From assembly GCA_016218585.1 (NCBI GenBank), contig JACRDK010000004.1:85347-149346 (forward strand): a stretch of DNA of 64,000 nt, written 5' to 3'. Of the stretch, positions 14,224 to 61,102 are shown in pieces. The stretch comes from Candidatus Doudnabacteria bacterium. GTDB taxonomy: Bacteria; Patescibacteriota; Doudnabacteria; UBA920. Under the pieces are notes generated by a model that had not been told where the DNA came from, made no database searches, and saw only the letters and a program-made list of their open reading frames with translations. Positions within the stretch are counted from its first letter, which is position 1. Each line of letters starts with the position of its first letter. The translations under genes and the position numbers were made by a program.

Positions 14224-14239
14224 ACAAAAAAATTATAAA

Positions 14240-14270
14240 ACCCTTCCGATTAACTTCGGGAGGGTTTTAT
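14240..14270 (+). terminator. Rho-independent terminator
   Basis: AAACCCTTCCGATTAACTTCGGGAGGGTTTTAT hairpin plus U-tract. Confidence 0.6.
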
Positions 14271-14474
14271 AATACCTAGTTAAAATGGAACAGGGTTAAG
14301 TGACACTGAAAAATTCTATGTATTAAACACATGTAAACATTGATATTTTAGGCTTTGAGATCTTTAAAAAAACTGTCTTTTTGGCAGTTTTTTTCAGAAA
14401 AAAATTGTAAAGGCTAATAGTTGTTCATAATATGTTAATATACAATTATGTAAGCAATAAAATGTCCAAAATTT

Positions 14475-24071: not shown

Positions 24072-25031
24072 TCAAAATAACTTGTTGAAGCCAGCTGTAT
24101 TAATAAAGAAATTGCCAGTATTCAACTTCAGTGCATTATTTATATCTACTTTTTGACTTTCAATTTTATTTAATGGGCTTTCGCCATCATCAAATTCATT
24201 ATTTTTCAGAATGCTTTTTTTAATTGCATTTTTTAATTTTAAATTCTTAGAAAACAATAAATTGAAATACGCACCATCTAAAAATGAAACCTGATGGAAT
24301 TTTGAATTTACTAATTTATTCTTTAGTATATCAATTAATTCTTTAATCTGTTTGTTTTGAGCCCCTCCACTTATACTAATGTGTTTGGCTTCCAAAAAAT
24401 ATATATCTTTACCATTTTTAACACATAAATCCATTTTTTTATTTTGTGAGTCTTTGCCAATCTGGACTTTAAAGTTTTTTAAAATTCCATTCAGGGTAAA
24501 ATCACCTTTAAACTTTGAAACGCTTTTTTTGTTTTTAATAAAGGTTTCGAATTTTTCCGTGTATAAATAACCTTTTGATTTTAAAATCTTTATTAATTTC
24601 TCTTCCCCTGCTTGTCCTTTTTTGCGGGACGAAGTCTTATCAATTAAGGCCTGAATCCACTCTCCAGGTACAATATCATTTAAATCTCGTTTTTCAAGAT
24701 AAAGTTTGGTGATTTTCTCTAAAGCTTGAAGATTTTTAGAAGCCACTTCAACGGTTGCATCACAAGCATTAATAAAGCACCCAAATTCAGAAAACTGGGC
24801 ATTTTTTTCAAGTAAAATAGCAAGGTTGTGATAAATGTTCTTCTCAACTTTTTTTACTTCTTTACTTTTTTGTTTATTTAGTTCTTTGAGAGTAATTAAT
24901 TGATTTTTGATTTCTTGTGTTTTTTTTGCATACAAACTCAAATCCTTATGTTTTTCTATAAACATGTAAGATTCATCTAGTACTGGCTCAGGGTGATTCG
25001 AACAATGTTTGAGCAATTGTAAATTATTCAT
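24072..25031 (-). CDS. Putative Type II restriction endonuclease (PD-ExK) partner of the adjacent methyltransferase
   Basis: Overlaps methyltransferase by 8 nt; Lys-rich AT-rich gene; DLCVKNGKDIYFLEAK fits D-x13-E-x-K. Confidence 0.45.
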   Translation of the reverse strand: MNNLQLLKHCSNHPEPVLDESYMFIEKHKDLSLYAKKTQEIKNQLITLKELNKQKSKEVKKVEKNIYHNLAILLEKNAQFSEFGCFINACDATVEVASKNLQALEKITKLYLEKRDLNDIVPGEWIQALIDKTSSRKKGQAGEEKLIKILKSKGYLYTEKFETFIKNKKSVSKFKGDFTLNGILKNFKVQIGKDSQNKKMDLCVKNGKDIYFLEAKHISISGGAQNKQIKELIDILKNKLVNSKFHQVSFLDGAYFNLLFSKNLKLKNAIKKSILKNNEFDDGESPLNKIESQKVDINNALKLNTGNFFINTAGFNKLF

Positions 25032-26205
25032 TTGCTAATTTTAATGGTAAAACATTTAAATTCTCATACTTGTTGATAATATTATTAAAATAAATGTGAT
25101 TAATTAATTTATACGCAAAATCAAAAGATATTCTTTTTCTATCTTTATCCCTGTAGTTGGTTAGAAATAAAGAACAATAATCCTGCCTTAACTGCTCAAG
25201 ATTCTTATTGAATAAATTAATAATTTTATTTTGAATAGTAACTGGCAGTGGTTCACTAAAAACTAAATATATCATATGGCGGGATGTTGATTTGCTAATC
25301 AAACACTCCACTCCATAGTTTTTTATATTTTCAAGGGCAATCTTCCCCTTATCAGTACCGCTATCAATTGCCTTCAAAAGCATGACATTAGATTTAGTTA
25401 ATTCAGCAAGTTGTTTTGTAACATAAATGTCAACCCTTTGATCAATGTGGTTATATGCTGCTTTTAACTTAATATCCCCTTTCTGATTGTTTATCATTTC
25501 TTCTGTAAGTCTGTATACTCCTAAATTATTATCTTGGTTTTTTATTTTGCTTACAAATTCTCCTCCAATAATCCATCCATATTTTCTTTCTAGTTTAATC
25601 AAAATATCTTTACCCTCAGGATAAATATGTGTTTTAATCTCAAAACCTTCCTTAAAATAATTAGTTTTCTTTACATAATAAAAAGCAATAACGTTATAAG
25701 TGGTATCTGCAAATACCTGCTGTTTGAAATAATTAATTTCAACTATCTCAAACTTGGAGAAAAAAATATCCCTTATACTTTTTGAATTTTCTGCTGAAAG
25801 AAAATTGATTGGAACAATTACTATTCCCTCGTCACTGTCCATAATAGACTGTAATGCTATTTGATATAAATCTTCAAACTGAAATTTAGAAAAATATTTA
25901 AACTTTGTTTCTTTGGTAGCTTTATTTACATTAAGATAGGGGGGGTTCGTAATTACAAATTTAAATTTAAGCGGTGATAAAATATTGTCATTAAATTTAA
26001 TAGTTTTTTTATTTATATATTTTTTATCAATGTCAAAACCCCTGACATTTTTTGCCCCATTATTTTTGGCCCAAACTAACAAGTCCCCATTTCCTGCAAA
26101 TGGGTCAATAACTTCTTTACCTACAACTCTTTTTTCTAGCCCTTTTAATATATAATCTGAGTTGGTTGTAAAAAACTGTCCTAATTGTTTTTTGTTTCCA
26201 GCCAT
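25024..26205 (-). CDS. N6-adenine DNA methyltransferase, gamma class (TaqI/Eco57I-like)
   Basis: GQFFTT (motif X), DPFAGNGDLL (motif I FxGxG), NPPY (motif IV) in gamma order. Confidence 0.8.
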   Translation of the reverse strand: MAGNKKQLGQFFTTNSDYILKGLEKRVVGKEVIDPFAGNGDLLVWAKNNGAKNVRGFDIDKKYINKKTIKFNDNILSPLKFKFVITNPPYLNVNKATKETKFKYFSKFQFEDLYQIALQSIMDSDEGIVIVPINFLSAENSKSIRDIFFSKFEIVEINYFKQQVFADTTYNVIAFYYVKKTNYFKEGFEIKTHIYPEGKDILIKLERKYGWIIGGEFVSKIKNQDNNLGVYRLTEEMINNQKGDIKLKAAYNHIDQRVDIYVTKQLAELTKSNVMLLKAIDSGTDKGKIALENIKNYGVECLISKSTSRHMIYLVFSEPLPVTIQNKIINLFNKNLEQLRQDYCSLFLTNYRDKDRKRISFDFAYKLINHIYFNNIINKYENLNVLPLKLANE

Positions 26206-27854: not shown

Positions 27855-28409
27855 TTAAGACTTTAATAACATAGAAAATTTTTCCCGAAACTTTTTAACC
27901 TTTGGGCTTATAACCACGGCGCAGTATGGGTTGCCGGGATTGTTTAAATAATAATTCTGATGATAGTTTTCCGCCAAGTAAAATTTTTCTAAAGGGCGAA
28001 TTTCGGTAACAATTGGCGAACTATAAATTTTTTCCGCTTCAACTTCTTTAATTACTTCTTCGGCAACTTGCTTCTGCTGCGGCGAGCTATAAAATATAGC
28101 CGAGGCATACTGAGCTCCCACGTCATTGCCCTGCCTGTCTTTGGTAGTCGGATCGTGCACCGCAAAAAATACTTCCAATAATTGTTTAAAGGAAATTACG
28201 CTTGAATCAAATTCTATTTTGGCAACTTCTACGTGTCCCGTATTACCGCCACAAACCTGTTCATAACTCGGGTTTTCCAAACTGCCGCCAGTGTATCCAG
28301 GCAAAACCGAACTTACACCTTTTAAGTTTTGAAACACCGCTTCCGTGCACCAAAAGCAACCGGCACCAAGAACGGCTATTTCTGTTTGTTGATTTTGATT
28401 ATTCATCAT
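27855..28409 (-). CDS. msrA: Peptide-methionine (S)-S-oxide reductase MsrA
   Basis: GAGCFWCTEAVF active-site motif, GY(T)GG. Confidence 0.9.
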   Translation of the reverse strand: MMNNQNQQTEIAVLGAGCFWCTEAVFQNLKGVSSVLPGYTGGSLENPSYEQVCGGNTGHVEVAKIEFDSSVISFKQLLEVFFAVHDPTTKDRQGNDVGAQYASAIFYSSPQQKQVAEEVIKEVEAEKIYSSPIVTEIRPLEKFYLAENYHQNYYLNNPGNPYCAVVISPKVKKFREKFSMLLKS

Positions 28410-31900: not shown

Positions 31901-32932
31901 TTAATTAACATTAATTGTCCCTCTATACATTCCCATACTGCACATAAAGGCAATTTGAGTTGGTTTGCTTGGGCTATGAAAAGTTACCTCGCCGCTGCTG
32001 CCCAGCGGAACAACTTTTTGTACCCCCAATGAAGGGATGGTGAAATCCTGAACGCAGCTGGAACCGCCTTGATTCACTAATTTTATTTTTATATCTGAAT
32101 CTTTTGGCACGGAAAAACTGTTTGGGCTATAACCGGAAGCGCCTATGGTAAGAGTAATGTTTGAATTAGTTTCCCCAACCGCGGTTTGGTTGCCGCTTGG
32201 GCAATAGGCAATGGCGCAAAAAGCTCTGCTTCCAATATCCGTAAGGCTAATTGGCTTGCCGGTTAGCGCCAGCGCGTTATTTAAATTAAACAAAGACAAC
32301 AATATTATGGCAAAAGCGGCGGCGCGAAAAAACTTTTTATGCCAAAAGTCTCCCAAACGAGTGGCAAAATATCCGAGCAAAAAAAAGATCGGGCTGGTTC
32401 CCAAAACAAACGCATACATTATCCCCGCTCCCCTAATAGCGCTGCCGCTGGCTATTGCCAAAGCCATCATGGCCTGGGTTGTACCGCACGGAATGAACAC
32501 CGTAAAAGCCCCCAAAATTGCCGGCGCAAAAATATCTTTACTCTTTGACTGTTTTCTAACCAACCGAGTTAAAAACTTTGGCGGCTGAATTATGAAATAG
32601 CGGAAAAACGGGTGCACGTCTAACAAAGCCATAGCGGTGCCAAACATAAAAATCACCACGGCAAATTGCATAACCAATTTTACAGTGAGCGATAAAGCGA
32701 ACAACGAACCAAACCAGCCAAGAAGCAAGCCTAAAATTGTATAAGCCACAAGCTTCGCCAGCAAAAACCACAAAATTGGCGCAGCTGTTCCTTTTTGCGC
32801 TTCACCCTTTAGCCGCTCCTCTTCCCGCTGAGCAATGGTTGAAGCAAGCAGCCCGCCCTGTACGGCAAGGCAAGTAAGCCCTCCGGTTAGCAGGCCTGTT
32901 AAAAATATTGCGATAAAGGACGTATTTTGCAT
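31901..32932 (-). CDS. Membrane protein: DsbD_2/CcdA-like transmembrane domain fused to a C-terminal cupredoxin-like domain
   Basis: N-terminal FLTGLLTGGLTCLAVQGG; 6-7 TM; C-terminal beta domain with CxxxC...C...M (CAIAYCP, SSCVQDF, FMCSMGMY). Confidence 0.5.
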   Translation of the reverse strand: MQNTSFIAIFLTGLLTGGLTCLAVQGGLLASTIAQREEERLKGEAQKGTAAPILWFLLAKLVAYTILGLLLGWFGSLFALSLTVKLVMQFAVVIFMFGTAMALLDVHPFFRYFIIQPPKFLTRLVRKQSKSKDIFAPAILGAFTVFIPCGTTQAMMALAIASGSAIRGAGIMYAFVLGTSPIFFLLGYFATRLGDFWHKKFFRAAAFAIILLSLFNLNNALALTGKPISLTDIGSRAFCAIAYCPSGNQTAVGETNSNITLTIGASGYSPNSFSVPKDSDIKIKLVNQGGSSCVQDFTIPSLGVQKVVPLGSSGEVTFHSPSKPTQIAFMCSMGMYRGTINVN

Positions 32933-32946
32933 TTAACTAATTTAAA

Positions 32947-33417
32947 TTATTTTTGTTTAATTTTTTTATATAACATGGCAATGGTTAGCAACAGCGCCAC
33001 CCAAACTAAGACAACCGTAATAACGCACATTAACGAATACCAAACAAACTGATGACCATAACCTGACATCATGCCAAACGGAGCAGCCGACATCATGTTA
33101 AAACCATATTGCTGATTTCTTAGCGCCGGGACAGACGAGGTAAAAGTCATTACCGGGTAACTGGGTTTAATTAATCCATACATGTCTTTTTGTTCGTCGG
33201 AAGTCAACTGGCCATTTTGCAATTTTTCCATATAGCCCTCTATTTTTTGAGCATTAGCATCCTGGCTTATTGTTACCGCTCCGCTGCCCGATTGTACTCT
33301 GGTCGTATTCATCATGCCATAACCCGGAACCAGAGCCGCCGCCATTGTGGCCCCTGCCGGCAATAAAATAGCTGCCGCTAAAACTAATCCTAAGAAACTT
33401 TGTTTTTTGGTTGTCAT
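32947..33417 (-). CDS. Met-rich membrane-anchored protein, possible copper-binding accessory protein
   Basis: Signal/anchor plus MMNTT, FNMMSAAPFGMMSGYGH Met motifs, C-terminal TM. Confidence 0.4.
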   Translation of the reverse strand: MTTKKQSFLGLVLAAAILLPAGATMAAALVPGYGMMNTTRVQSGSGAVTISQDANAQKIEGYMEKLQNGQLTSDEQKDMYGLIKPSYPVMTFTSSVPALRNQQYGFNMMSAAPFGMMSGYGHQFVWYSLMCVITVVLVWVALLLTIAMLYKKIKQK

Positions 33418-33491
33418 ATTTTTCTTTTTAATTGTGTTTGTTCTTAATTTACTTATTATCCTTACATACTTATGTCCCTATATACTTACAA

Positions 33492-35795
33492 TTATATTTT
33501 AACACGTTTTAAACGTAGTGAGTTAACCACCACGGAAACAGAAGAAAGAGCCATGGCCAGCCCCGCAAACATTGGGTTTAAGTGCCAACCGAACAACGGA
33601 TAAAACAAACCAGCGGACAGCGGAATGCCAACGACATTGTACGCAAAAGCCCAAAATAAATTTTGTTTAATGGTGCTTAAAGTTTTTTGCGACAAGCGGA
33701 TTGCCCCCAAAATTTTCGTTATATCCCCTTTAAGCAAAGTAATATCCGCCGACTCAATGGCAATGTCGGTGCCGGTTGCCATAGCAATGCCAATATTGCT
33801 TTGAGCCAAAGCCGGCGCGTCATTTATGCCGTCTCCGGCCATTGCCACAACCAAGCCCTGCGCCTGGAGCTGTTTTATTTTTATTGCTTTATCCTGCGGC
33901 AGCGCCCCGGCTAAAACTTCATCTATGCCGATTTGCCTGGCAGCATACTCAGCCGTCTGCTTGTTGTCGCCGGTTAGCATAATTACTTTAATATTTAATT
34001 TATGCAACTGCCTCACTGTTTCTTTGGCCACTTCTTTAATTTTATCGGCAATAATAATTATCCCTAAAACCGCGTGCTCATCCATAACCAAAACCGGAGT
34101 CTTCCCCTGGCCGGTAAATTCGCTGAGTTGATTATTATCAAAATTTAATTTCAAATCTTCCGCTAATTTCGGGCTGCCGACAAAATATTTTTTACCACTA
34201 ATTATCCCTTTCACTCCCCGCCCCTCCAAATTTTCAAAGTCTGTTACTGGTGATAATTTTATATTTTCTTCTTTAGCTTTATTTGCCACGGCATCCGCCA
34301 ATGGGTGCTCAGATTTATTTTCCAGCGACCCTGCAATCTGCAGTAAACTTGCTACTTGATGCTTGCTACTTGATACTTTGATATCAGCGACGGTCGGCTT
34401 CCCTTCCGTTAAGGTTCCGGTTTTGTCCACGACCAATACATTTATGCTTCTAAGCTTTTCCATTGCTTCCGCATTCTTTACTAAAATTCCGTTTTGCGCC
34501 CCTTTGCCAACGCCAACTATTATGGCGGTGGGAGTAGCCAGGCCCAAGGCGCATGGACAGGCAATTACCAAAATACTGACGAAAGACAATATTCCTAACG
34601 ACACGTTTTGGCCAACCAGCAACCATAGCAATAAAGACAACAGCGCAATACCTAAAACTACCGGCACAAAAATTGCGGAAATTTTATCCGCCAACTTTTG
34701 GATTGGCGCTTTAGACCCTTGCGCTTCCCCCACCATTTTTATAATGTGGGCCAGCAGCGTTTCGCCACCGACTTTGGTTGCGCGAAAAATAAAGCTTCCC
34801 TGCTTATTCAGCGTTCCGCCTATTACTTCATCTCCCGCCTGCTTGGTTGCGGGCATGGCTTCCCCGGTAACCATTGCTTCATCTATAGAAGATTTACCTT
34901 CTATAATTACTCCGTCTACCGGCAACTTTGCGCCCGGCTTCACAATTATCAAATCGCCAATTTTAACCTGCTCAACGGAAATTTCTTTTTCTCCTTCAGG
35001 CAATTTTATTATGGCGGTCTTAGCCTGGAGATTCATTAATTTTTCCAAAGCCTGCCCGGTTTTAATTTTGCTTCTTATTTCCAAATATTTTCCTAAGGTA
35101 ATAAAACTCACCACCACAATGGTCACGTCAAAATATGTTTCTCCGGGTAAATTTAAAGTCTTAACCAGATTGGGAAACAACACCACTGCGGCGCTATATG
35201 CATAGGCCGACAGCGTGCCTAAACCTACCAAAGTATCCATATTGGCAGCGCCAAAGCGAACAAAATTCCACAAGCCTTTTAAAAATGGCCGCCCAATCCA
35301 AAATAAAATAATTGTAGCTAAAACTAATAAAATTTTAGAATATACTTCGCCCATTAAAAAGAAACCCGGCAAACCGCTAAAGCCCGCAGCCACAACGTCC
35401 CAGAGCATTGCCAAAAACACTAAACCCGCTACGGGCAAAGCAAAATATAATTTGTGCTTATAACTATTTAGCTCTTTTAGTTTTTCTTCCTTGCTTTGAT
35501 TCAAACCCAAATGCTGGCTGTGATCCATACCGCTCATTACGCTGCCGTCCGGCATAACGTGGCTGCTTGGGTGCGAGGGTTCTTGTTCAAGTAAAAATTT
35601 ATACCCCAACGGTTCAATCTTCTCGGACAAATCCTGCAGGCTCGCCTGTTTTGGATCATATTCCACTTCGGCCGTTTCGGTGCCGTAGTTTACTTCCGCT
35701 CCGGCAACCCCAATCGTTTTTTTTAGAGTTCGCTGAATAACATTAGCGCAAGAAGCGCAATGCATTCCGGCAATTGGAATTTTAACTTTTTTCAT
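33492..35795 (-). CDS. copA: Copper-translocating P1B-type ATPase
   Basis: N-terminal HMA GMHCASCAN; CPC in TM6; DKTGTLT; GDGINDAPAL; HP motif. Confidence 0.9.
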   Translation of the reverse strand: MKKVKIPIAGMHCASCANVIQRTLKKTIGVAGAEVNYGTETAEVEYDPKQASLQDLSEKIEPLGYKFLLEQEPSHPSSHVMPDGSVMSGMDHSQHLGLNQSKEEKLKELNSYKHKLYFALPVAGLVFLAMLWDVVAAGFSGLPGFFLMGEVYSKILLVLATIILFWIGRPFLKGLWNFVRFGAANMDTLVGLGTLSAYAYSAAVVLFPNLVKTLNLPGETYFDVTIVVVSFITLGKYLEIRSKIKTGQALEKLMNLQAKTAIIKLPEGEKEISVEQVKIGDLIIVKPGAKLPVDGVIIEGKSSIDEAMVTGEAMPATKQAGDEVIGGTLNKQGSFIFRATKVGGETLLAHIIKMVGEAQGSKAPIQKLADKISAIFVPVVLGIALLSLLLWLLVGQNVSLGILSFVSILVIACPCALGLATPTAIIVGVGKGAQNGILVKNAEAMEKLRSINVLVVDKTGTLTEGKPTVADIKVSSSKHQVASLLQIAGSLENKSEHPLADAVANKAKEENIKLSPVTDFENLEGRGVKGIISGKKYFVGSPKLAEDLKLNFDNNQLSEFTGQGKTPVLVMDEHAVLGIIIIADKIKEVAKETVRQLHKLNIKVIMLTGDNKQTAEYAARQIGIDEVLAGALPQDKAIKIKQLQAQGLVVAMAGDGINDAPALAQSNIGIAMATGTDIAIESADITLLKGDITKILGAIRLSQKTLSTIKQNLFWAFAYNVVGIPLSAGLFYPLFGWHLNPMFAGLAMALSSVSVVVNSLRLKRVKI

Positions 35796-35796
35796 A

Positions 35797-36063
35797 TTAT
35801 TTGTTTTTTAGCTTGTAAATTTTTACCATTTCTTTTACGGCCTTCTGGCTTTGGCCGTGGGTAAACTGATGTGGGACGTGTTCGGTTAAGTGATTTTCCA
35901 ACAAATCCGCATTAAAGCTCTGCAAGGACTTCTCCACAGCCAGGCTCTGCGTTATTATGTCCACACAATATTTGTCGGCTTCTACCATTTTTTCTATGCC
36001 CACCACCTGCCCGGCAATGCGGTGCAAATGGCTTATTAACTTCTTTTTATACTTTTCTTGCAT
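35797..36063 (-). CDS. csoR: CsoR family copper-sensing repressor
   Basis: HRIAGQVVGIEKMVEADKYCVDIITQ... with the conserved Cys/His copper ligands. Confidence 0.85.
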   Translation of the reverse strand: MQEKYKKKLISHLHRIAGQVVGIEKMVEADKYCVDIITQSLAVEKSLQSFNADLLENHLTEHVPHQFTHGQSQKAVKEMVKIYKLKNK

Positions 36064-36102
36064 AAATCTTATATCTTAATTCATAAATCTTAAATTTACT
36101 AT

Positions 36103-36118
36103 ATACCCCCCTAGGGTA
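36103..36118. promoter_or_regulatory. Candidate CsoR operator
   Basis: ATACCCCCTAGGGTAT pseudo-palindrome about 40 bp upstream of the csoR start, resembling CsoR boxes (TACCC-N-GGGTA). Confidence 0.5.
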
Positions 36119-36438
36119 TGTTGTCAACTAACAATTAAAATATGTGGTTACTAAAAGCATACTAATATTGTTTTGATGTTAACATGATAAAATGCTAAAA
36201 TATCCATATGAACCCCGTAAAAAATTCCATTCTACGGGGAATAATAAAGGTTACTCGGAGTTTAAACTTACGAGGTATTGTACCCAAGGAGCAGACTGCT
36301 TTTCGCAGCTTAAGCTCGCGAGGTATTGAACCTGTATTACTTCCTCGGCTCGCTTGCCTTGCAAGCAAGGCAGCTCGCTCTACGTCGCTAATAAACAGCA
36401 TTTTTACAAGTCCATGAATGTTTTAAAACAGAAAAAAT

Positions 36439-37266
36439 ATGTCAATTTCTAACGGGGTGAATGACCCAATTATTTGTTTTGGCCAACAACCCTGCGGTTT
36501 TTTCCCCAAACGCTACTTAGTGGGAAAAATTAATGCTGCCCGGGCTTTGCAAAAAGACATCGGCGGCAAGATAGTCTTTTTTTATCATGATTCAGATGCC
36601 GACTATAGGGAAACAATTACCGTAATGAAAGATCTGCAAACAGATGCGGAGGTCCGTTTAAATTTTATCCAGGAAAACAAACTGCAAAAAAAATTCTCGC
36701 CGCTTTACTTAAAAAGGATTCCGGCCGGATGGAAAGAAGAAATCTTAAAACAACTGCCCCGCTTTTTACCGCCAGCTCCACCTTATGAGGTTAACGGCAA
36801 ACCGGCAGACAGCCTAAAAGATATTTTTGAGCGAGTAAACGAAAAAACGGTAGCAGATTTTTGCCTGGAGATGTATAGAAAAATGCATTTGCTGGATGGC
36901 ATGGAAATAGTTCGCTCATCGGACAAAGATTTTAGGCTCGCCACCCCCGACATAAAGGGTGAATATTTTGCCGATCTCCCCTACCAGGGAGAAATTGTCC
37001 GCGCCAAGATTGAAAACAACAAAGCGGCGCTGCATGAAGGCGGCGGCAAATACACTTACTTTGATTTGCCGGAGAAAATTGAAAAGTGGCAAATCAACCC
37101 GGGAAAAGACGAAAGGTTTGCCTGGATGAATTCGGTTATTCATTGCACTCACTACATTGCCGGCAACTCGGAATACGAATATATTAAGCGTGAGCAATTC
37201 CCGGAAGTAAAATTTATGAAGCGTGAACAAATTGACCAGCCGGAAATGGCCTGGCTATCTAACTAA
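36439..37266 (+). CDS. Short BshC-like protein (bacillithiol cysteine-adding enzyme family, N-terminal Rossmann-like core only)
   Basis: ICFGQQPCGFFPKRYLVGKINAARAL aligns by eye to the BshC GGQQAGLLTGPLYTIHK motif; KIVFFYHDSDADYRE aligns to the PIFWVAGEDHDLDE block; 275 aa against about 540 for BshC. Confidence 0.45.
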   Translation: MSISNGVNDPIICFGQQPCGFFPKRYLVGKINAARALQKDIGGKIVFFYHDSDADYRETITVMKDLQTDAEVRLNFIQENKLQKKFSPLYLKRIPAGWKEEILKQLPRFLPPAPPYEVNGKPADSLKDIFERVNEKTVADFCLEMYRKMHLLDGMEIVRSSDKDFRLATPDIKGEYFADLPYQGEIVRAKIENNKAALHEGGGKYTYFDLPEKIEKWQINPGKDERFAWMNSVIHCTHYIAGNSEYEYIKREQFPEVKFMKREQIDQPEMAWLSN

Positions 37267-37280
37267 TTAATACCCTATTA

Positions 37281-38015
37281 ATGAAAACCACTATGTCCGC
37301 CAAAGGCGGATCCGCCTTTGGCGGAAGAATACTTGCAATTGGTGCCCACCCGGACGACTTGGAATTTGGCTGCGGCAGTTTGCTGGCCAAAGAAGCCTCT
37401 GCGGGCTCGCAAATAAAACTTTTAGTTCTGTCTAAAGGAGAGGCTGGAACCGCCGGCACGCCCGAAAGCCGCGCCGAAGAATCCCGGGCAGCCGCCAAAT
37501 TAATTGGCGCGGAAATTGAATTTCTGGAAATGGGCGGCGACTGTCATATAAAAAATACAGCCGAGAATGCTTTTGTTATTGCCAAGTACATTCGCGAATT
37601 TAAACCCGATGTCATTTTAGCGCCGCACACGGACGAGAACCAACACCCGGACCACGCGGAAGCCGGAAAAATGGCCCGCGATGCCGCCCGTTTTGCGCGC
37701 TATGGGGGTTTGGCCGAATTAAAAGGCTTAGCTACCCATAAAATTACCGCGCTCTATTATTACCCTGTTACTCAGGATTTTGCCGCTCCGGTTGATTTGG
37801 TGGTTGATACCACCGAAGTTTATGATACCTGGGTAAAAATGATAAATTGCCATAATACCCAGCTGCAAAATAAAGATTATGAGAGCCTGGTTACCGCCCG
37901 CGCCAAGGCGCTTGGCGTAGCCATTGGCACTAAGTCCGCACAAGGGTTATGGAAAAATGACCCTATCAGGCTAAATAATTTATCCGATCTTAACCTGTCA
38001 TCCAGAAATTATTAG
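37281..38015 (+). CDS. PIG-L/LmbE family N-acetylglucosaminyl deacetylase (BshB/MshB-like)
   Basis: ILAIGAHPDDLEFGCGSLLAK, HTDENQHPDH zinc-binding motifs. Confidence 0.8.
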   Translation: MKTTMSAKGGSAFGGRILAIGAHPDDLEFGCGSLLAKEASAGSQIKLLVLSKGEAGTAGTPESRAEESRAAAKLIGAEIEFLEMGGDCHIKNTAENAFVIAKYIREFKPDVILAPHTDENQHPDHAEAGKMARDAARFARYGGLAELKGLATHKITALYYYPVTQDFAAPVDLVVDTTEVYDTWVKMINCHNTQLQNKDYESLVTARAKALGVAIGTKSAQGLWKNDPIRLNNLSDLNLSSRNY

Positions 38016-38069: not shown

Positions 38070-39200
38070 ATGAAAATTGGAATTGTCTGATATCCTTCCG
38101 TTGGTGGCAGCGGCATTGTGGCAACAAACTTAGGGCTAGAACTGGCGCTCCTGGGGCATCAGGTTCATTTTATTTCTTACGAATCGCCTTTTCGTTTGGA
38201 GAAAAAACATAAAAATATTTTTTTCCACAAAGTTCAAATTAACGAATACAGCCTGTTTAAATATCCGGACTACACCCTGCCGCTGGCCGTTGCCATTGAA
38301 GAAGTGCAAAAAAGATACGGGCTGGACGTAGTGCATGTGCATTACGCCGTGCCGCACGCCACCGCGGCGCTACTGGCTAAAAGAATTATGAGGCAAAATG
38401 GAATTCAACCGCCTAAAATAATTACCACTTTGCATGGAACCGACATTACCCTGCTGGCCAAAGATCCTGCTCTTTTTGAAATAATTAAATATTCGGTTGA
38501 AAGAAGCAACGGCGTAACTGCGGTATCACAAAATTTAAAAAATGATACAATAAAATTTTTAAAAACCGAAAAAGATATTGAGGTTATTTACAATTTTTAT
38601 TCTCCTCCGGCGCCAAAAAAAACCCACAACGCCATGCGCCGAGAACTTAAAATAAAAGACAGCGATGTTTTGGCTATTCATTTGTCTAATGTTCGTCCGG
38701 TAAAAAGAATTCCTGATTTGTTGAAAGTGGCGGCAAAAATGAAAACACAAAAAAACTTTAAACTGTTAATTTTAAGCGGCGGCGATTTTAAACCGTTTAA
38801 ACCGCTAGTTAAAAAACTTAAACTTGGCAAACAACTTATTGTTAAAGAAAATGTTAAAGATATTGAAAACTATTTAAATGCTGCCGACTTAGGGCTTTAC
38901 ACATCGGAAACAGAAAGTTTTGGCATGGGTATTTTGGAAACAATGAGTTATGAAAATCCCATTGTCAGCACTAATGTTGGCGGCGTGCCGGAAGTAATGG
39001 AAGAAGGAAAAAGCGGATTTTTGCTGGCGCTGGGCGATGTTTCCGGAATGGCAAACAAGGTAAAACTTTTGGTGAATAATGAAAATTTAAGAAAACAAAT
39101 GGGACAACACGCCAAAAAAATCGCCTGCGAAAAATTCTGCTCCAAAGTAGTCGTCCCCCAGTATTTGGAATACTACAAAAAAATAATAGAAGAAAAGTAG
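38070..39200 (+). CDS. GT4 glycosyltransferase, BshA-like (N-acetyl-alpha-D-glucosaminyl L-malate synthase family), interrupted by an in-frame TGA at 38088-38090; the ORF track starts at GTG 38118
   Basis: Own translation from ATG 38070: [34 protein letters not shown] matches the BshA N-terminus [22 protein letters not shown] with TGA at the conserved Cys; C-terminal GT4 motifs (E..G....E....G.P.V). Confidence 0.7.
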
Positions 39201-39224: not shown

Positions 39225-39250
39225 AAACCCCCTTAAAGAAGGGGGTTTTA
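39225..39250 (+). terminator. Rho-independent terminator after the GT4 gene
   Basis: AAAAACCCCCTTAAAGAAGGGGGTTTTATT. Confidence 0.65.
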
Positions 39251-39253
39251 TTA

Positions 39254-39282
39254 TTGACAATTATGTCAATATATGATATAAT
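39254..39282 (+). promoter_or_regulatory. Perfect consensus sigma70 promoter with palindromic -35 region
   Basis: TTGACA (39254-39259), 17-nt spacer, TATAAT (39277-39282); -35 is part of the palindrome TTGACAATTATGTCAA; followed by RBS GGAGGA and ATG at 39313. Confidence 0.6.
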
Positions 39283-39309: not shown

Positions 39310-39612
39310 GTGATGAAGGCCATCATTTTAGTATTTTTTTCGCTCTCCCTGCAGTGTACAGTAGGGCAGGAACCCGCCAAACCGGCACCACCGAGCGGTG
39401 TGACTGCTTCGCAGGGTGCAAAGCCGGCACCGGAGAAGAAGACCGGCAACGAACCGCTCGAGGCCTTGAGCCACGAAGAGGGATGTCGACGGGCAAGGTA
39501 TTTCTTCTACCGACCCGATCGATACCTCCAGCTCACCCGCATGAGCGGAAACGAAAACACGGTGCAGAACATGCTTCTGCACCAGATGACGGCAAACGGT
39601 TGCGACTGGTAG
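39310..39612 (+). CDS. Small secreted protein (100 aa), compositionally GC-rich relative to the genome
   Basis: Signal peptide MMKAIILVFFSLSLQCTVG; Pro/Ala-rich linker; two Cys (EEGC...ANGCDW); preceded by consensus promoter and strong RBS, followed by a terminator; chosen over the antisense ORF 39328..39648. Confidence 0.5.
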   Translation: MMKAIILVFFSLSLQCTVGQEPAKPAPPSGVTASQGAKPAPEKKTGNEPLEALSHEEGCRRARYFFYRPDRYLQLTRMSGNENTVQNMLLHQMTANGCDW

Positions 39613-39685: not shown

Positions 39686-40357
39686 TTATTTTTTCCACTC
39701 TACAATTTTCCCCATTTTAATTTCTATTTTATCCGCGGGGCGCAGATTTTTTATTTGCAGCTTATTTAAAATTTTATAATGTTTTATTTTATCCAGCTTT
39801 TGCGGTATTGCAAAAAGCTGCTCTGTGCTAGTTCGCCAGTTTATTGTTTCCCTTCCCTCTCTCTCTGAGGCAGAGGGATTAAGGGTGAGGGGGTGCTTGT
39901 CAAAAAAACTTAAATCAAAAATTTCCGAATATTCGCGCAATGTTTTTTGCCCGGTGTTTAAAAAATATTCATGGAAGTAAGACATAACCAATTCCCGCAA
40001 AGTTTTATAAACCGGCTCGCGAAAACGCAGTACGCCGTGATTAGTTTTACTTATGGCGCCAAAACAGCCAAATTTTTTATAAATTGCAACTACATGGTCA
40101 TCATCCCCGGGCTTGACCGAACGAAGATCAACCACAAGCGGCCTTGCCCCATGAAATTCCAAAATCGCCACAGCCAAGAGCGCGCCTTCCATACAATGTG
40201 CGGTTTTATGTTTTATAACCTGGCGCGGGGAATAACACGTCTCCCCGCTTTTCTCAAAGTTAAACTTTAACGAATTTAAAAAGCCCTGAATTTTTTGCGG
40301 CGAATTCAGTTTTTTAAAAAGTTTTATTTCCGCTTTTGTATACAATCCATTCTCCAT
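39686..40357 (-). CDS. Transglutaminase-like (Cys-His-Asp) domain protein, putative cysteine protease
   Basis: CMEGALLAVAILEFHGARPLVV...DDDHVVAIYK fits the transglutaminase-core pattern C.E.A...G.PAR.V...H.W.E.Y. Confidence 0.45.
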   Translation of the reverse strand: MENGLYTKAEIKLFKKLNSPQKIQGFLNSLKFNFEKSGETCYSPRQVIKHKTAHCMEGALLAVAILEFHGARPLVVDLRSVKPGDDDHVVAIYKKFGCFGAISKTNHGVLRFREPVYKTLRELVMSYFHEYFLNTGQKTLREYSEIFDLSFFDKHPLTLNPSASEREGRETINWRTSTEQLFAIPQKLDKIKHYKILNKLQIKNLRPADKIEIKMGKIVEWKK

Positions 40358-40392: not shown

Positions 40393-41295
40393 TTATTTTT
40401 TTATTGCGTGGCCGCCAAACTGCTTGCGCATAAGCGCCACAATTTTGTTGGAAAATTTATTTTGATTGGCCGGATCTTCCGACTCGCTGCGGACTTTTAA
40501 GCTGTCTTCTATTACCCGAACATCCACGCCCAATTCGTGGCCGGCGTTAACTGTCCATTCCCCTTCGCCGCTAGCTTTTATATAGCCTTTGGTTCCGGCA
40601 ATATCTTCCCCGTCAAAAATATTATAAACCAAATCTATGAGCCAGCTGCGCACTACGCTGCCCTGCTGGTAAACTTTAGTAACCTGCTTCAAATCCAAAT
40701 TAAAATCGCTGGCTTGCATTACCGCATAGCCTTCGCCAATGGCTTCCATCATTCCGTATTCAATGCCATTATGCACCATTTTTACAAAATGTCCGGCTCC
40801 GTTTTTCCCCATAAGCCCGTAATTTTCCCCGGAAGATAAAACTTTAAAAATAGGTTCTACCACGTGCCATTGTTCTTTTGGTCCGCCAACCATAAGCGCA
40901 AAGCCGTTCTCTTCGCCCCAAACGCCCCCGCTGGTGCCGCAGTCGTAAAATACCACGCCTTTGGCACTTAGCTCCGCGGCTCTCTTTATAGATTCTTTAT
41001 ATAAGCTGTTACCGCCGTCTATAACAATGTCCCCCGCGCGCAAGTGCGGCCCGATTTGCTTTTCAATAAATTCAGCGACTATTTCATGGGGCAACATTAT
41101 CCAAAAAATCCTGGGGCTTTGCGCCATGGCGCCAACAAGCTCGTCAACTTTTTCAAAAGTTTTAACTCCGGCTTTTGCGGCTTCCTCGCGCGGCTCCGGC
41201 GATCGATTCCAGGCCAATACCTCAAAATTATTTTTTTGTAATCTACGGGCAATTTGTATACCCATTTTTCCTAAACCAAAAATTGCAATTTTCAT
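40393..41295 (-). CDS. gnd: 6-phosphogluconate dehydrogenase, short (~300 aa, YqeC/GntZ-type) form
   Basis: MKIAIFGLGKMGIQIARRL Rossmann motif; 6PGD C-terminal domain. Confidence 0.8.
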   Translation of the reverse strand: MKIAIFGLGKMGIQIARRLQKNNFEVLAWNRSPEPREEAAKAGVKTFEKVDELVGAMAQSPRIFWIMLPHEIVAEFIEKQIGPHLRAGDIVIDGGNSLYKESIKRAAELSAKGVVFYDCGTSGGVWGEENGFALMVGGPKEQWHVVEPIFKVLSSGENYGLMGKNGAGHFVKMVHNGIEYGMMEAIGEGYAVMQASDFNLDLKQVTKVYQQGSVVRSWLIDLVYNIFDGEDIAGTKGYIKASGEGEWTVNAGHELGVDVRVIEDSLKVRSESEDPANQNKFSNKIVALMRKQFGGHAIKK

Positions 41296-41304
41296 AAATG
41301 TATA

Positions 41305-41314
41305 GACCGCGGAT
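41305..41314. repeat. Left inverted repeat (GACCGCGGAT) flanking the GxxExxY gene; CGCGGAT occurs twice on this flank
   Basis: Perfect reverse complement of ATCCGCGGTC at 41775-41784; ATCCGCG occurs 3 times on the right flank. Confidence 0.55.
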
Positions 41315-41331
41315 GCGCTGATAAACGCAGA

Positions 41332-41733
41332 TTACGCGGATTTTGTTTTTTGATTAATTATTCGCTTTATTAAAACACTTTTTCTAGTAAATATTGCTAG
41401 TAATCCTAATTCCAAACCGTTTGTTTTTAAATAAGTCATTACTTGATCAAAATATTTTTTGTGGAATTCCTCCGCAACCTTCAACTCAACAACTATGTTA
41501 ATTTTTTCTTCTTTAAATTTAACTAAAAAATCAATAAAGAACTTGGAAATTATTTTATCATCATATTTTAAATTGCAGTACAACTCTCTATCAAAAACCA
41601 AACCTAATTTTTCCAATTCACTCACAAACCCACGCTGATATTCTTTTTCCCGATAACCATAACCGAGCCTGTTATAAACATTATATAACGCTCCGATAAT
41701 CATTTTGGTTTGGTTCTGATATAAAAGTTGCAT
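41332..41733 (-). CDS. GxxExxY family protein (PD-(D/E)xK-fold, TIGR04256-like)
   Basis: IIGALYNVYNRLGYGYREKEYQRGFVSELEKLGL...ADFLV...IVVELK. Confidence 0.8.
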   Translation of the reverse strand: MQLLYQNQTKMIIGALYNVYNRLGYGYREKEYQRGFVSELEKLGLVFDRELYCNLKYDDKIISKFFIDFLVKFKEEKINIVVELKVAEEFHKKYFDQVMTYLKTNGLELGLLAIFTRKSVLIKRIINQKTKSA

Positions 41734-41753
41734 ATTTGCAGTTTTTATCCGCG

Positions 41754-42545
41754 CTATCCTGCCTGCATCCGCGTATCCGCGGTCTTTCTGACCTCAATAC
41801 ACATAAACAGCGGAATTTCCTTGCGGGCTTTGTCTTCCGCCAATTTTCTCGCGCCCTTGTCGCTGGTTTTATGGGAAATCCATTCTTCCAAGCGGCTTAC
41901 TACAAGTCCCGATTTATAAAAAGCTTTAAAATAAACCTGCAGCGGATGGTGAAAAGAATAAGTGAATTTTTTATTCCTCATTTCTTTTACTCCTTGGGTC
42001 ATATCCACGGCCTGGGTAATTTCCGACATATAGCCGTCTATTCTGCGGTACTGAACTTTTTGCTTTTCGTCATAATCCCAATTCGAAGCTCCGGGGACGC
42101 GAAAGGTAGGATGATTTAAAACCAGCACCGCCCTCCCCCCGGGTTTTAGCACCCGGGACATTTCGCCAATGGCCGCCGGCAAATTTTTCATATTTTGCAA
42201 AGCCAAGATGCAAATAGCTGCATCGAAGCGGTTATCAGCAATGCCGTTTAATTTCTCCGCCGACAAAACCAAATAACTTTCGTTCTTGCCGGATTGTGTT
42301 TTTGCCAAAGAAATTAATTCAGCGCCAATATCCACCCCCAAAACTTTAGCTCCAGCCTTTGCCAGTTCGCGCGAAAAATAACCTTGGCCGCAGCCAATAT
42401 CAATTATGTTTTCGCCAGGACTTATATTCAGCAGCCTTAGCAAATTTGGCTTTATTACTTTTTCCTGATAGGTATCTTCCCCTTCTTCTAGTAATTGGTT
42501 ATACCATCCGGCTACTTTACCCCAGGAAGTATTTGAATTGACCAT
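41754..42545 (-). CDS. Class I SAM-dependent methyltransferase (Methyltransf_11-like)
   Basis: IIDIGCGQGYFSRELAKAGAKVLGVDI motif I; LKPGGRAVLV. Confidence 0.8.
   Translation of the reverse strand: MVNSNTSWGKVAGWYNQLLEEGEDTYQEKVIKPNLLRLLNISPGENIIDIGCGQGYFSRELAKAGAKVLGVDIGAELISLAKTQSGKNESYLVLSAEKLNGIADNRFDAAICILALQNMKNLPAAIGEMSRVLKPGGRAVLVLNHPTFRVPGASNWDYDEKQKVQYRRIDGYMSEITQAVDMTQGVKEMRNKKFTYSFHHPLQVYFKAFYKSGLVVSRLEEWISHKTSDKGARKLAEDKARKEIPLFMCIEVRKTADTRMQAG
41775..41784. repeat. Right inverted repeat (ATCCGCGGTC) flanking the GxxExxY gene
   Basis: See left repeat; overlaps the last codons of the downstream methyltransferase ORF. Confidence 0.55.
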
Positions 42546-42681
42546 AATTTAAAAATAAATAAAATTGTATAAATGATATAATTGCCCAAAATTGCGCAAG
42601 ATTGTCCAGAATTGACCAAAAATTAAGTTGCAGAGGTTTAATTTTGTGCAATCTTATTTAATTCTGGGCAATTTTGGGCAA

Positions 42682-44160
42682 TTACTTTGTCCGCCACTCT
42701 CTTAAATCTTTTTTTATAAATTCATCAGCTTCTTTTGGTCCCGCGCTTTTTTGCTTATAGCTAAATACCGGCAAGTTTTTAAACTCAGGATTTTCCGTAA
42801 TGCTGTCTATAAATTTCCAGGAAGATTCTATTTCATCGCTGCGAATAAACAAGCGCTGGTCGCCTTCTATAAAGTCCAACAGCAACCGCTCATACGCCCC
42901 GGGCAGTTCGGTCATAAATGCCTGCTTGTAGCCAAAGCCGTAGTCGCCTTGGTGAATATCTACGCCAAAACCGGGAACTTTGTTGTTGATTTGCAAATGT
43001 ACCGATTCGTCCGGTTGAATGCGAAAAGTTAAAACATTCGCCGTGCAGTTGCGAAAAATACAGCGCGCCGGTTCTTTAAAATGCACCGTAACTTCCGCAA
43101 CTTTTTTATGCAGGGCTTTTCCAGTGCGCAAATAAAACGGCACACCCTGCCAGCGCGGCGTATTAATAAAAACTTTTAGCGCGGCAAAAGTTTCTGTTTG
43201 ACTGTCGGCCTTAACTTCTTTTTTGTATCCCGCATACTGCCCTTTAATAACAGACTGCCTTAACTCCCCTGCTGGCAGCTGCAAAGCTTTTAAAATTTTT
43301 AGCTTCTCGTTGCGAATATCTTCGGTGGTTAAATTATATGGCTCGTTCATGGTAATTAAAGACAGCATTTGCAAAATATGGTTTTGCACAAAATCTTTAA
43401 TCGCTCCGGTCTGGTCGTAATATTCAGCGCGCTTGGCTGTAGTGTCATTCTCCAAAACGCTAATTTCCACATGGTCAATATTTTTGTTATTCCAAAGCGG
43501 CTCAAAAATGCCGTTAGCAAAGCGGACCACCATTAAATTTTGCACTGTTTCCTTGCCTAAATAATGGTCTATGCGGTAAATTTGTTCTTCTTCAAAAAAC
43601 TTCTTTAAAAGCTTATTCAAAGCACTGGCTGACTTATAATTAAAACCAAACGGCTTTTCCACCAAAACTCGAACTTTCCTCTCATGGGCTTTGCAGGACA
43701 TAAGCAGGCCGGAATTTTTTAAAATGTGCGCGATGCCGGAAAAATACTGCGGGCTGGTTGCAAAGTAATACAAGCGATTATAGCAAACGTGCTTGTTTGG
43801 CTGGTCGTGGTCGGATAAAAGCTTTGCCAAACCGGTAAAAGAAGCGACGTCATCAAAATTTCCCTGATAATAAGTTAAGCGCTTTAAAAAAGACTGTTTA
43901 ACCTTTGTCGGCAGTTTTTTTAGCACAGTTGATTTTTTTAAAACAAAATCAAAATAAGATTTTGCGTTTAACTCTTTACGGCCAACGCAAACCAGCCTAA
44001 AACTCTTAGGCAGCATCCCATGCTCTTCCATGCGCAACAAAGCCGGCAATAAATAATCGGCCGAAAGGTCTCCGGTCGCGCCAAAAATTGTTAAAATTGT
44101 CGGCGCTATTTGTTTGCCCGACAAACGTTTTTGAGTATCTTCTACTAAGCTTTTTTTCAT
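42682..44160 (-). CDS. zwf: Glucose-6-phosphate 1-dehydrogenase
   Basis: GATGDLSADYLLPAL NADP site, EKPFG, RIDHYLGKE active-site motif. Confidence 0.9.
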   Translation of the reverse strand: MKKSLVEDTQKRLSGKQIAPTILTIFGATGDLSADYLLPALLRMEEHGMLPKSFRLVCVGRKELNAKSYFDFVLKKSTVLKKLPTKVKQSFLKRLTYYQGNFDDVASFTGLAKLLSDHDQPNKHVCYNRLYYFATSPQYFSGIAHILKNSGLLMSCKAHERKVRVLVEKPFGFNYKSASALNKLLKKFFEEEQIYRIDHYLGKETVQNLMVVRFANGIFEPLWNNKNIDHVEISVLENDTTAKRAEYYDQTGAIKDFVQNHILQMLSLITMNEPYNLTTEDIRNEKLKILKALQLPAGELRQSVIKGQYAGYKKEVKADSQTETFAALKVFINTPRWQGVPFYLRTGKALHKKVAEVTVHFKEPARCIFRNCTANVLTFRIQPDESVHLQINNKVPGFGVDIHQGDYGFGYKQAFMTELPGAYERLLLDFIEGDQRLFIRSDEIESSWKFIDSITENPEFKNLPVFSYKQKSAGPKEADEFIKKDLREWRTK

Positions 44161-59800: not shown

Positions 59801-61102
59801 TCATCGTCCTTGCCAGGTAAAAATATAATAAACTGTTTTTAAAATTATTTCCAAATCAAACAAAAAGCTTCGATGCTTTATATAATATAAATCGTACTGA
59901 AGTTTTAACTTGGTTTCTTCCACGCTGCCGGCATATATGTTTAACTGGGCCCAACCGGTGAGTCCCGGCTTAACCAAATGCCGTTCGTCATAAAAAGGAA
60001 TTTTTTGTTTTAATTCTTCCACAATGTGCGGCTGTTCCGGGCGAGGACCAACCAAACTCATAGTGCCTAGCAACAAATTTATAAACTGGGGCCATTCGTC
60101 AATCCGGCTTTTGCGCAAAAACTTCCCCACGCCGGTAATTCTTGGATCATTAACCGAAGTCCAGGTATTAGTAGCTCCCCCGCTCATGGTGCGGTATTTA
60201 TAAACTTTAAAAATTTCCCCTTTCTTGCCAATGCGTTCCTGGATAAACAGCACGGGTCCGCGGCTGGACAGCTTAATTAACAAAGCACAAAAAGGAAAGC
60301 TAATGGCAAAACCCAAAAAACCTACCAGTCCGAAAATCAAATCAACGAGTCTTTTTATTAAATTATAAAATCTCTTTTCCTGATAGTTAATGTTTTCCAG
60401 GAACCAAATTTCATTAATTTGAGAAAGATAAACCCGCCGGAGCAATTGTTCGTAAAAATTCTTATGGTTATAAAATTTTACTCCCAGCGTCCTAAGCTTA
60501 TATAGATTTTCCGAAACTTGAGGATTGGCATGCAAATTATCCGGCAAAATAATATTGGCATTTTTTTCAAATGAACTGAGTTCCAGATTCTTTTCATTTA
60601 CATGGCCCAAAACTTTATAACCCAAATAACCCTGATGCTTAATTTCTGTCTCCAATTCAACCAGCTCGTTGTTAAATGAAAACAAATAAACCCCTTCTAT
60701 AAAACGGCTTTTTAAAAAATATTTAACAAGCAGGTGCCAAACTAAAATTAAAACAAAAGCTACCCCGACATTTATTAACAAAAATCTCCTGGGGGTTAAA
60801 ATTAAGTTCGGCTGCAGGTAAAAATACATTACGGCAATTAAAAAATTAATTACCATAGCCGAGATTAAATTAAAAAACAAACTGGAATAACGGCGGAAGG
60901 AAGGAGTCTCAAATAAACCATGAATAAAAAACACTAAAAGCCAAAAAGCATAAATTATGGTGAACGTATTAAAATACGCCGGGTTTTGCTGGACATCGGA
61001 AATTCTCCCAAAACGCAACAAGGCCGAAATGTATAGGCCGGCATAAAGCAAAATTACATCCGGCACCAGAACTAACCAAAAAATAATAGTTTTTTTATTC
61101 AC
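59801..61102 (-). CDS. Polyprenyl-phosphate sugar phosphotransferase (WbaP/bacterial sugar transferase family)
   Basis: C-terminal LVGPRPEQPHIVEE and GLTGWAQLN motifs; N-terminal TM bundle. Confidence 0.85.
   Translation of the reverse strand: MNKKTIIFWLVLVPDVILLYAGLYISALLRFGRISDVQQNPAYFNTFTIIYAFWLLVFFIHGLFETPSFRRYSSLFFNLISAMVINFLIAVMYFYLQPNLILTPRRFLLINVGVAFVLILVWHLLVKYFLKSRFIEGVYLFSFNNELVELETEIKHQGYLGYKVLGHVNEKNLELSSFEKNANIILPDNLHANPQVSENLYKLRTLGVKFYNHKNFYEQLLRRVYLSQINEIWFLENINYQEKRFYNLIKRLVDLIFGLVGFLGFAISFPFCALLIKLSSRGPVLFIQERIGKKGEIFKVYKYRTMSGGATNTWTSVNDPRITGVGKFLRKSRIDEWPQFINLLLGTMSLVGPRPEQPHIVEELKQKIPFYDERHLVKPGLTGWAQLNIYAGSVEETKLKLQYDLYYIKHRSFLFDLEIILKTVYYIFTWQGR

Follow-up and report, generated by a model that had tools for sequence, protein, structure and literature searches.

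An in-frame TGA at the invariant cysteine codon of bshA in a Doudnabacteria genome: recent nonsense mutation or base-call error

What does a stop codon mean when it stands, alone, at the position of an invariant cysteine near the beginning of a gene that is otherwise conserved throughout? The question is raised by a gene resembling bshA in a metagenome-assembled genome (MAG) of a Candidatus Doudnabacteria bacterium, of which we analysed a stretch of 64,000 nucleotides (referred to hereafter as the window). A first-pass annotation of this DNA had listed four explanations for the TGA, namely a fresh nonsense mutation, a sequencing or assembly error, selenocysteine insertion, and stop-codon read-through or recoding. 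The first two survive the comparisons described below and jointly carry most of the probability, whereas selenocysteine and programmed read-through are unsupported.

The interrupted bshA reading frame

Read from position 38070, the DNA runs atg aaa att gga att gtc TGA and continues tat cct tcc gtt ggt ggc agc ggc. The in-frame TGA occupies positions 38088-38090 of the forward strand, where it forms codon 7, after MKIGIV and before YPSVGGSG; the coordinates originally reported for it are confirmed. Beyond this codon the frame is open as far as a TAG at 39198-39200, with no second stop and no frameshift. The features of the locus that bear on the argument are as follows.

36439..37266, + strand: 275-aa gene, the first of the cluster, intact; predicted BshC-like (class I aaRS-like Rossmann) fold, from AF2/Foldseek
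37281..38015, + strand: bshB-like gene for a PIG-L/LmbE deacetylase, intact (Pfam PIG-L, 7.6e-25)
38070..38087, + strand: true start of bshA, the ATG and five further codons (MKIGIV), corresponding to beta-strand 1 of the N-terminal Rossmann domain
38088..38090, + strand: in-frame TGA at the codon for the invariant Cys7, which is TGT in the nearest relatives
38091..39200, + strand: remaining bshA frame, from YPSVGGSG to the TAG at 39198-39200, undecayed (TIGR03999, 437 bits)
38098..38113, + strand: small 6-bp hairpin, CCGUUG-GUGG-CAGCGG, 7 nt past the UGA, encoded by the S-V-G-G-S-G codons
38118..38120, + strand: GTG (Val17), the annotated start, giving a product without strand 1, the Gly-rich loop and the first turn of helix 1
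39229..39255, + strand: terminator-like hairpin and T-run just 3' of the bshA stop (consensus scan, CCCCTTAAAGAAGGGGG then TTTTATTATT)

The gene had been described from its sequence as BshA-like, and full-length matches bear out this assignment. When the TGA is read as Cys, the frame encodes a 376-aa protein that scores 437.3 bits against the NCBIfam model for BshA, TIGR03999 (cutoff 273.7), with a match that spans model positions 1-374 of 375. Residues 1-373 of the same protein align to the solved BshA structures from B. subtilis (5d00) and B. anthracis (3mbo and 2jjm), with E values from 5e-97 to 1.5e-91. Other bacillithiol genes are adjacent, and the gene order is kept in relatives. The one departure is that the frame bearing the invariant Cys-x-Pro-x-x-Gly-Gly-Ser-Gly N-terminus is interrupted, the Cys codon being TGA. 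By every sequence criterion other than this interruption, the gene is bshA.

That the TGA falls on a conserved Cys codon, as had been proposed, is fully upheld by the homologues. Among the 120 best of these, all 110 that include the N-terminus have Cys at the corresponding column, and the GGSG motif is invariant among the homologues examined. At the level of DNA, 66 related loci were read at this codon and carry TGT (51 loci) or TGC (15 loci), with no instance of TGA; five further loci (L082-L086) bring the total to 71 of 71 with TGT or TGC. The comparison with orthologues that had been suggested as a check thus finds TGA in none of them. The nearest relatives (L006, L007, L008 and L086), which share 82-84% nucleotide and 90% protein identity with the window gene, all have TGT, and they conserve both the ATG and the intergenic sequence upstream of it. 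Since these nearest relatives carry TGT, the direction of change is from T to A, and the TGA, which was found in no other assembly examined, is a lineage-specific transversion of TGT to TGA. The earlier statement that a single transition would create the stop was therefore mistaken, as either cysteine codon becomes TGA only by transversion.

The stop thus interrupts a frame that orthologues keep intact, yet the gene bears no other mark of a pseudogene: we found no relaxed selection and no further lesions in bshA. Across 123 alignment columns that are conserved at 95% or more, the window gene violates one, compared with a mean of 1.2 and a maximum of five among homologues. A relative-rate count at conserved sites, using the homologue P0002 and ten outgroups, gave four changes specific to the window gene and seven specific to P0002 (p = 0.55). 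Both of the adjacent pathway genes are likewise intact, bshB as well as the short gene for the BshC-like protein. Apart from the TGA, bshA is indistinguishable from its functional orthologues at the level of sequence and, if it is a pseudogene, it would have to be a very young one.

Real mutation or consensus error

The explanation that we prefer, to which we assign about an even chance, is that the base is real and that a very recent T-to-A nonsense mutation has changed codon 7 of a standard bshA from TGT to TGA. Ribosomes starting at ATG 38070 would then stop after six residues under the ordinary genetic code. The genome would carry a bshA allele that is null, or very leaky at best, within an otherwise intact cluster of bshC-like, bshB and bshA genes, and bshA would be only at the very beginning of pseudogenisation. 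Loss of BshA, which catalyses the first committed step of a conserved thiol pathway, ought to come at a considerable cost, and such an allele should then be rare or short-lived.

The principal competing explanation, a serious possibility to which we give somewhat less than an even chance, is that the TGA is a sequencing, consensus or assembly error, or an allele of a minor strain, and that the organism really has TGT and makes a normal 376-aa BshA. Such an error would look like what is seen here, one solitary substitution in a gene that is perfectly conserved elsewhere and has intact pathway partners; every relative examined has the Cys, and the base is confirmed by no independent assembly. 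The undecayed sequence and the intact state of bshB and the bshC-like gene, which are compatible with a very young mutation, fit an error equally well and in that respect count against a real allele.

Several observations nevertheless speak for the quality of the consensus. Over the 3914 bp at 33410-37323, the Logan assembly of SRA run SRR12113407 and the window are 100% identical. The run holds the same population, and wherever this independent assembly permits a check the MAG consensus is accurate. The Logan contig ends at 37323, within a 28-nt palindrome (37298-37325) inside bshB, and so stops short of the TGA. Throughout the 64 kb we saw no other broken gene, and the genes around bshA are neither split nor shorter than their orthologues. 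The sequence around the TGA (GTCTGATATCC) contains neither a homopolymer nor a repeat. In addition, a genome probably contains at least as many genuine pseudogenes with internal stops as consensus errors that create nonsense codons. On balance we favour a real base.

Searches for a second copy of the region returned related sequences only. A scan for the exact pattern, with N allowed at the wobble base, gave no match among metagenome contigs and, among genome contigs, matched only L008, the TGT-bearing relative already mentioned. In a protein-guided scan of metagenome contigs the best identity was 64%, and with the N-terminal 149 aa as the query no fragment exceeded 80% identity. No second assembly covering position 38088 was found, P0001 and the downstream 223-aa protein not being on record.

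Decoding of the TGA and the downstream GTG

If the base is real, the TGA could still be less than absolute as a stop. One version of this idea, which we consider unlikely, is that the codon is leaky and is read through at low frequency by a near-cognate tRNA (Trp or Cys), so that the allele would be a hypomorph instead of a null. UGA is the leakiest of the bacterial stop codons, and its near-cognate decoding by tRNA-Trp and tRNA-Cys is documented; the fully intact downstream frame and the lack of relaxed constraint are also as this explanation would have them. The cell would then make a little full-length BshA, identical to the wild-type protein whenever Cys was inserted. However, a very young null allele would be expected to show just as little decay, and we found no sequence sign of programmed read-through: there is no conserved downstream structure, and the TGA occurs in no relative. 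The base that follows the stop is U, which in E. coli favours termination.

A stronger version holds that a real UGA is productively decoded, either as selenocysteine or as Cys or Trp by a near-cognate or suppressor tRNA, and that active BshA is made. Were this so, a Cys codon would have been caught in the course of conversion to a recoded UGA, in the Patescibacteria and with no recognisable SECIS. We regard this as highly improbable, and recoding of the TGA in general as very unlikely.

The proposal that the UGA is read as selenocysteine, so that BshA would be a selenoprotein in which Sec replaces the conserved Cys, is scarcely credible in the light of the comparative data. It draws its appeal from the exact alignment of the in-frame UGA with an invariant Cys of the homologues, the classic signature of Sec/Cys exchange, and from the 6-bp hairpin with a GUGG loop that begins 7 nt downstream. 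The search for a bacterial SECIS hairpin 3' of the TGA that the first-pass annotation had recommended does find this element, but the same 6-bp hairpin also forms in Cys-encoding homologues (L001 and L083), and it is a by-product of the Gly-rich codons. The minimum free energy of the 63 nt downstream of the UGA is -15.1 kcal/mol, compared with -15.6 +/- 3.2 kcal/mol in 70 Cys-encoding homologues, of which 37 fold at least as well as the window over this length. Folding of 81 nt around the TGA is no better than that of shuffled sequences (z = +0.35), and an Rfam search of the TGA region gave no match at the gathering threshold or at E values up to 10. Together, the folding, the 70 homologues and Rfam reveal no SECIS that is specific to the UGA-bearing gene.

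Phylogeny and gene content point the same way. UGA occurs at this position in 0 of 71 orthologous loci, including the four relatives at 90% protein identity. ARAGORN detected only His, Lys and Arg tRNAs in the window, and therefore no tRNA-Sec. A Pfam scan of about 55 proteins encoded in the 64-kb window identified no selA, selB or selD, the sole EF-Tu-like GTPase among the proteins scanned being BipA. BshA is a retaining GT4 glycosyltransferase, and we know of no redox role for this Cys; a selenocysteine there would probably serve no redox chemistry. Moreover, a point mutation cannot bring a SECIS along with it. A literature search on selenocysteine use in Patescibacteria found no papers.

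Genome-wide reassignment of UGA can be dismissed on the evidence of the window itself. The window has a G+C content of 40.6%, and under translation table 11 its non-overlapping ORFs of 100 aa or more, 65 in number, account for 89% of the sequence. These ORFs end in TAA (42), TAG (18) or TGA (5). The earlier assertion that TGA terminates many long genes in the window was thus too strong, as it does so for only five of the 65. In three of the five, the stop comes no more than a few residues from the end of the Pfam profile:

3832-5109: Nramp, TGA-terminated at the Pfam profile end
59801-61102: Bac_transf, TGA-terminated at the Pfam profile end
62414-63418: epimerase, TGA-terminated at the Pfam profile end

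A scan of the 64-kb window revealed no other ORF that is bridged across an upstream TGA. Because TGA ends genes where their families are expected to end, UGA is a rare but genuine terminator here, the code is standard, and reassignment according to table 25 or table 4 is excluded. The exclusion of code 25 that had been argued at the outset accordingly holds, by way of the TGA stops at profile ends.

The last explanation concerns the start codon. Both the ORF finder and the NCBI annotation (MBI5530040.1, 360 aa, deposited as 'BshA [Candidatus Doudnabacteria bacterium]' on a 174,428-bp contig) restart the gene at GTG 38118, past the GGSG loop, just as the first-pass annotation had said that such a restart would delete this loop. 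In the AF2 model of P0002, a homologue that is 90% identical (pLDDT 90.5), residues 2-6 form strand 1, residues 7-13 form the Gly-rich loop, and helix 1 begins at residue 14. Because the model places these elements N-terminal to Val17, a product starting at 38118 would be without a core strand and the loop, and we expect that BshA re-initiated at this GTG would be inactive.

To suppose instead that the gene naturally starts at GTG 38118, and that the 360-aa NCBI product is the functional enzyme, has next to no probability. It is the homologue annotations that lend the idea some force. Among the 120 best homologues, seven begin with MATNLG or MVATNLG (P0040, P0043, P0054, P0076, P0088, P0094 and P0102), and two members of the nearest cluster, that of P0002, have the same short start (P0121 and P0124). 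These nine short forms might have reflected a shared in-frame TGA, and this candidate was rejected on inspection of the upstream DNA, which has TGT or TGC in nine of nine. In all nine, the DNA upstream of the short start encodes KIGI(V/I), the TGT or TGC codon, and YPS in frame, preceded by an ATG except in L001, where the frame is open and has no ATG. Orthologues annotated as starting at the equivalent of 38118 do exist, therefore, yet each has an intact Cys codon upstream, and the segment so omitted, KIGIVCYPS(V/I)GGSG, is encoded in frame. Alignment to the TIGR03999 model and to the PDB structures begins at residue 1, and the residues that a short form would lack are those modelled as strand 1 and the Gly-rich loop, with its invariant GGSG. 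A natural short form is already refuted by the DNA of the relatives. The nine short calls are start artefacts of gene callers, and the Shine-Dalgarno-like codons of GGSG (for example, GGAGGC) that precede the GTG may be their cause.

Implications and comparison with known systems

In itself the TGA is a minor finding, as it is routine for a MAG to contain a lone nonsense substitution or base-call error. The TGA does affect how the record should be used: MBI5530040.1 is a truncated call, and before bacillithiol synthesis is credited to this MAG the entry needs either a pseudogene flag or a check against reads. The protein databases contain at least nine more BshA entries cut short at this internal GTG despite intact genes, and because of them a comparison of proteins alone would wrongly make the short form appear natural.

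The gene at the head of the cluster may prove to be of wider interest. Its 275-aa product is recorded at NCBI as 'hypothetical protein HY918_00870', and it gave no sequence match in Pfam, NCBIfam or the PDB, whether searched singly or as a 56-sequence profile. The protein has 5548 homologues at E values up to 1e-3, and the best 120 of these 5548 are all unnamed and without a Pfam domain. In relatives where the position upstream of bshB-bshA was seen, this gene adjoins it. The AF2 model (pLDDT 93.7, pTM 0.90) has a single significant Foldseek match in the PDB, 4wbd, which is B. subtilis BshC (E 1.2e-10, probability 1.0, TMq 0.61, 13% identity); the next matches are class I GluRS and TyrRS, with E values above 5e-3. 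When the profile was run against 1.84 billion representatives, 239 relatives were recovered, and none of the 150 matches listed is the size of a canonical BshC. The bshB-like gene that follows has as its best NCBIfam match TIGR04001 (BshB1), at 151.6 bits, under the equivalog cutoff of 182.5. On the strength of the structural model, the 275-aa protein looks like a half-size analogue of BshC, and the locus would therefore be a complete, compact cluster of the bacillithiol type. Doudnabacteria-like Patescibacteria would then have a compact three-gene cluster that includes an unannotated half-size protein with a BshC-like fold. We consider this gene more interesting than the TGA because the BshC reaction has so far not been reconstituted in vitro (PMC5790435).

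Two features of the surroundings can be added. At 36240-36400 there is a conserved non-coding element of about 165 nt, which the nearest relatives lack at this place but which is present in L002 and L003. Long identical blocks flank a hairpin in this element, and the other copy has a different hairpin swapped in. The cluster is also surrounded by metal and redox genes (copA, csoR, DsbD-cupredoxin, MsrA, G6PD and 6PGD-like), most of which, MsrA excepted, keep their order around the cluster in relatives. A literature search on bacillithiol in the candidate phyla radiation found passing mentions only.

Compared with known BshA, the N-acetyl-alpha-D-glucosaminyl L-malate synthase of TIGR03999 (a GT4 enzyme with the GT-B fold), the window gene has the same N-terminus, KIGI(V/T)-C-YPS-V-GGSG, and is likewise paired with a bshB-like deacetylase gene. 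Unlike known BshA, as written it encodes a six-residue peptide, with TGA at the invariant Cys. Its host is a MAG from the Patescibacteria (Doudnabacteria), whereas known BshA systems are from Bacillota or Bacteroidota, and a half-size BshC-like gene is found where canonical systems have a BshC of about 540 aa.

Two groups of organisms and genes in which UGA has a meaning other than stop offer instructive contrasts. The Patescibacteria that use table 25 (Gracilibacteria and Absconditabacteria, UGA = Gly) belong to the same superphylum as the host and also have in-frame UGA in conserved genes. In the window, by contrast, UGA ends genes at their expected C-termini, and the sole in-frame UGA found sits at a Cys column and not at a Gly column. 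Bacterial selenoprotein genes of the fdhF type, which depend on SelB and tRNA-Sec, similarly have UGA at the position of a Cys in homologues; unlike in those genes, the UGA of the window is unconserved, is accompanied by no SECIS-specific structure, and lies in a window that encodes no Sec machinery.

The event at this locus is an ordinary one of a known kind, a nonsense mutation or a base-call error, with no altered code and very probably no selenocysteine. For a natural null allele in this pathway a precedent is found in the S. aureus NCTC8325 lineage, including SH1000, which is naturally null for bshC through an 8-bp duplication (PMC5790435). There, too, one small lesion has arisen in a natural lineage whose bacillithiol pathway is otherwise intact. 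In S. aureus the duplication shifts the frame of bshC, and this has been verified in cultured strains that are without bacillithiol (PMC5790435), whereas the lesion of the window is a nonsense substitution in bshA, known from the sequence of one metagenome assembly.

Start and stop codons

The internal GTG of the stretch ..GSG(I/V)VATNLG is annotated as the start codon in nine intact bshA genes from public assemblies, giving products of 357-374 aa. In these miscalled genes the conserved KIGIVC N-terminus is found in frame upstream of the GTG, and it is preceded by an ATG in eight of the nine. Calls from the internal GTG are a recurrent gene-caller artefact, likely produced because the GGAGG- or GGTGG-like codons of the GGSG loop resemble a ribosome-binding site. 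The related loci listed for this artefact, with positions, are:

L001 at 4824; L002/L003 at 10001; L004 at 10001; L005 at 1287; L008 (BshA homologue P0124)
L082 at 421; L083 at 437; L084 at 1501; L085 at 1501; L086 at 1835

In the window, where G+C content is 40.6%, stop codon usage is strongly skewed: of the 65 ORFs that reach 100 aa, 42 end in TAA, 18 in TAG and five in TGA. TGA is a genuine terminator here, though rare. At 24072-26205, the TGA stop of the first gene overlaps the start of the next, and the two genes look like a restriction-modification pair. Neither of two ORFs at 12712-15995 matched any Pfam family whatsoever.

24072-26205, minus strand: two overlapping genes, the first with an Eco57I-type methylase domain (393 aa), the second for a protein of 319 aa that weakly matches Tsp45I
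12712-14223 and 14475-15995, plus strand: two neighbouring ORFs, each of ~505 aa

Surroundings of the bsh cluster

The bsh cluster is set among metal and redox genes, and most of these, MsrA not included, retain their order around the cluster in the related loci L001, L002, L004 and L006. In the relatives examined, bshA is directly followed by a convergent gene, whose product is 205-229 aa long; the protein encoded in the window has no significant Pfam family.

27855-28409, 31901-36063 and 40393-44160: MsrA, a DsbD-cupredoxin fusion, a CopA-type P-type ATPase, a CsoR-type repressor, a 6PGD-like dehydrogenase and G6PD
39254-39282, plus strand: sigma-70-type promoter of perfect consensus (TTGACA-17-TATAAT, with a TG upstream), directly after the bshA terminator
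39310-39612, plus strand: 100-aa ORF downstream of this promoter, with a hydrophobic, signal-peptide-like N-terminus
39686-40357, minus strand: conserved 223-aa protein, convergent with bshA

Conserved non-coding element and palindrome

36240-36400, plus strand: conserved non-coding element of ~165 nt between csoR and the BshC-like gene
37298-37325: perfect 28-nt palindrome, CCGCCAAAGGCGGATCCGCCTTTGGCGG, at the 5' end of bshB

The ~165-nt element, which has no match in Rfam, is absent from the corresponding site in L006, L008 and L001. A second copy, 71% identical, occupies a different intergenic region (15124-15297) of L002/L003, another Doudnabacteria-like contig. The two copies differ in a hairpin, one having been swapped for another, and share long identical blocks on either side. 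The folding MFE z-score is -2.3. A small structured RNA and a MITE-like element are both possible identities for it.

The palindrome codes for SAKGGSAFGG, and is the exact end point of an independently assembled Logan contig (SRR12113407).

A BshC-like protein upstream of bshB

36439-37266, plus strand: unannotated 275-aa 'hypothetical protein HY918_00870', adjoining bshB-bshA on the upstream side

This gene is the immediate upstream neighbour of bshB-bshA in the relatives checked. Its sequence matched nothing in Pfam, NCBIfam or the PDB, and the best 120 of its 5548 homologues are all without a name. Among the matches listed, a profile search gave no link to canonical BshC (~540 aa). The AF2 model (pLDDT 93.7) has a sole significant match among PDB structures, B. 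subtilis BshC (4wbd; E 1.2e-10, TMq 0.61), followed by class I aaRS cores. We consider HY918_00870 a candidate half-size analogue of BshC.
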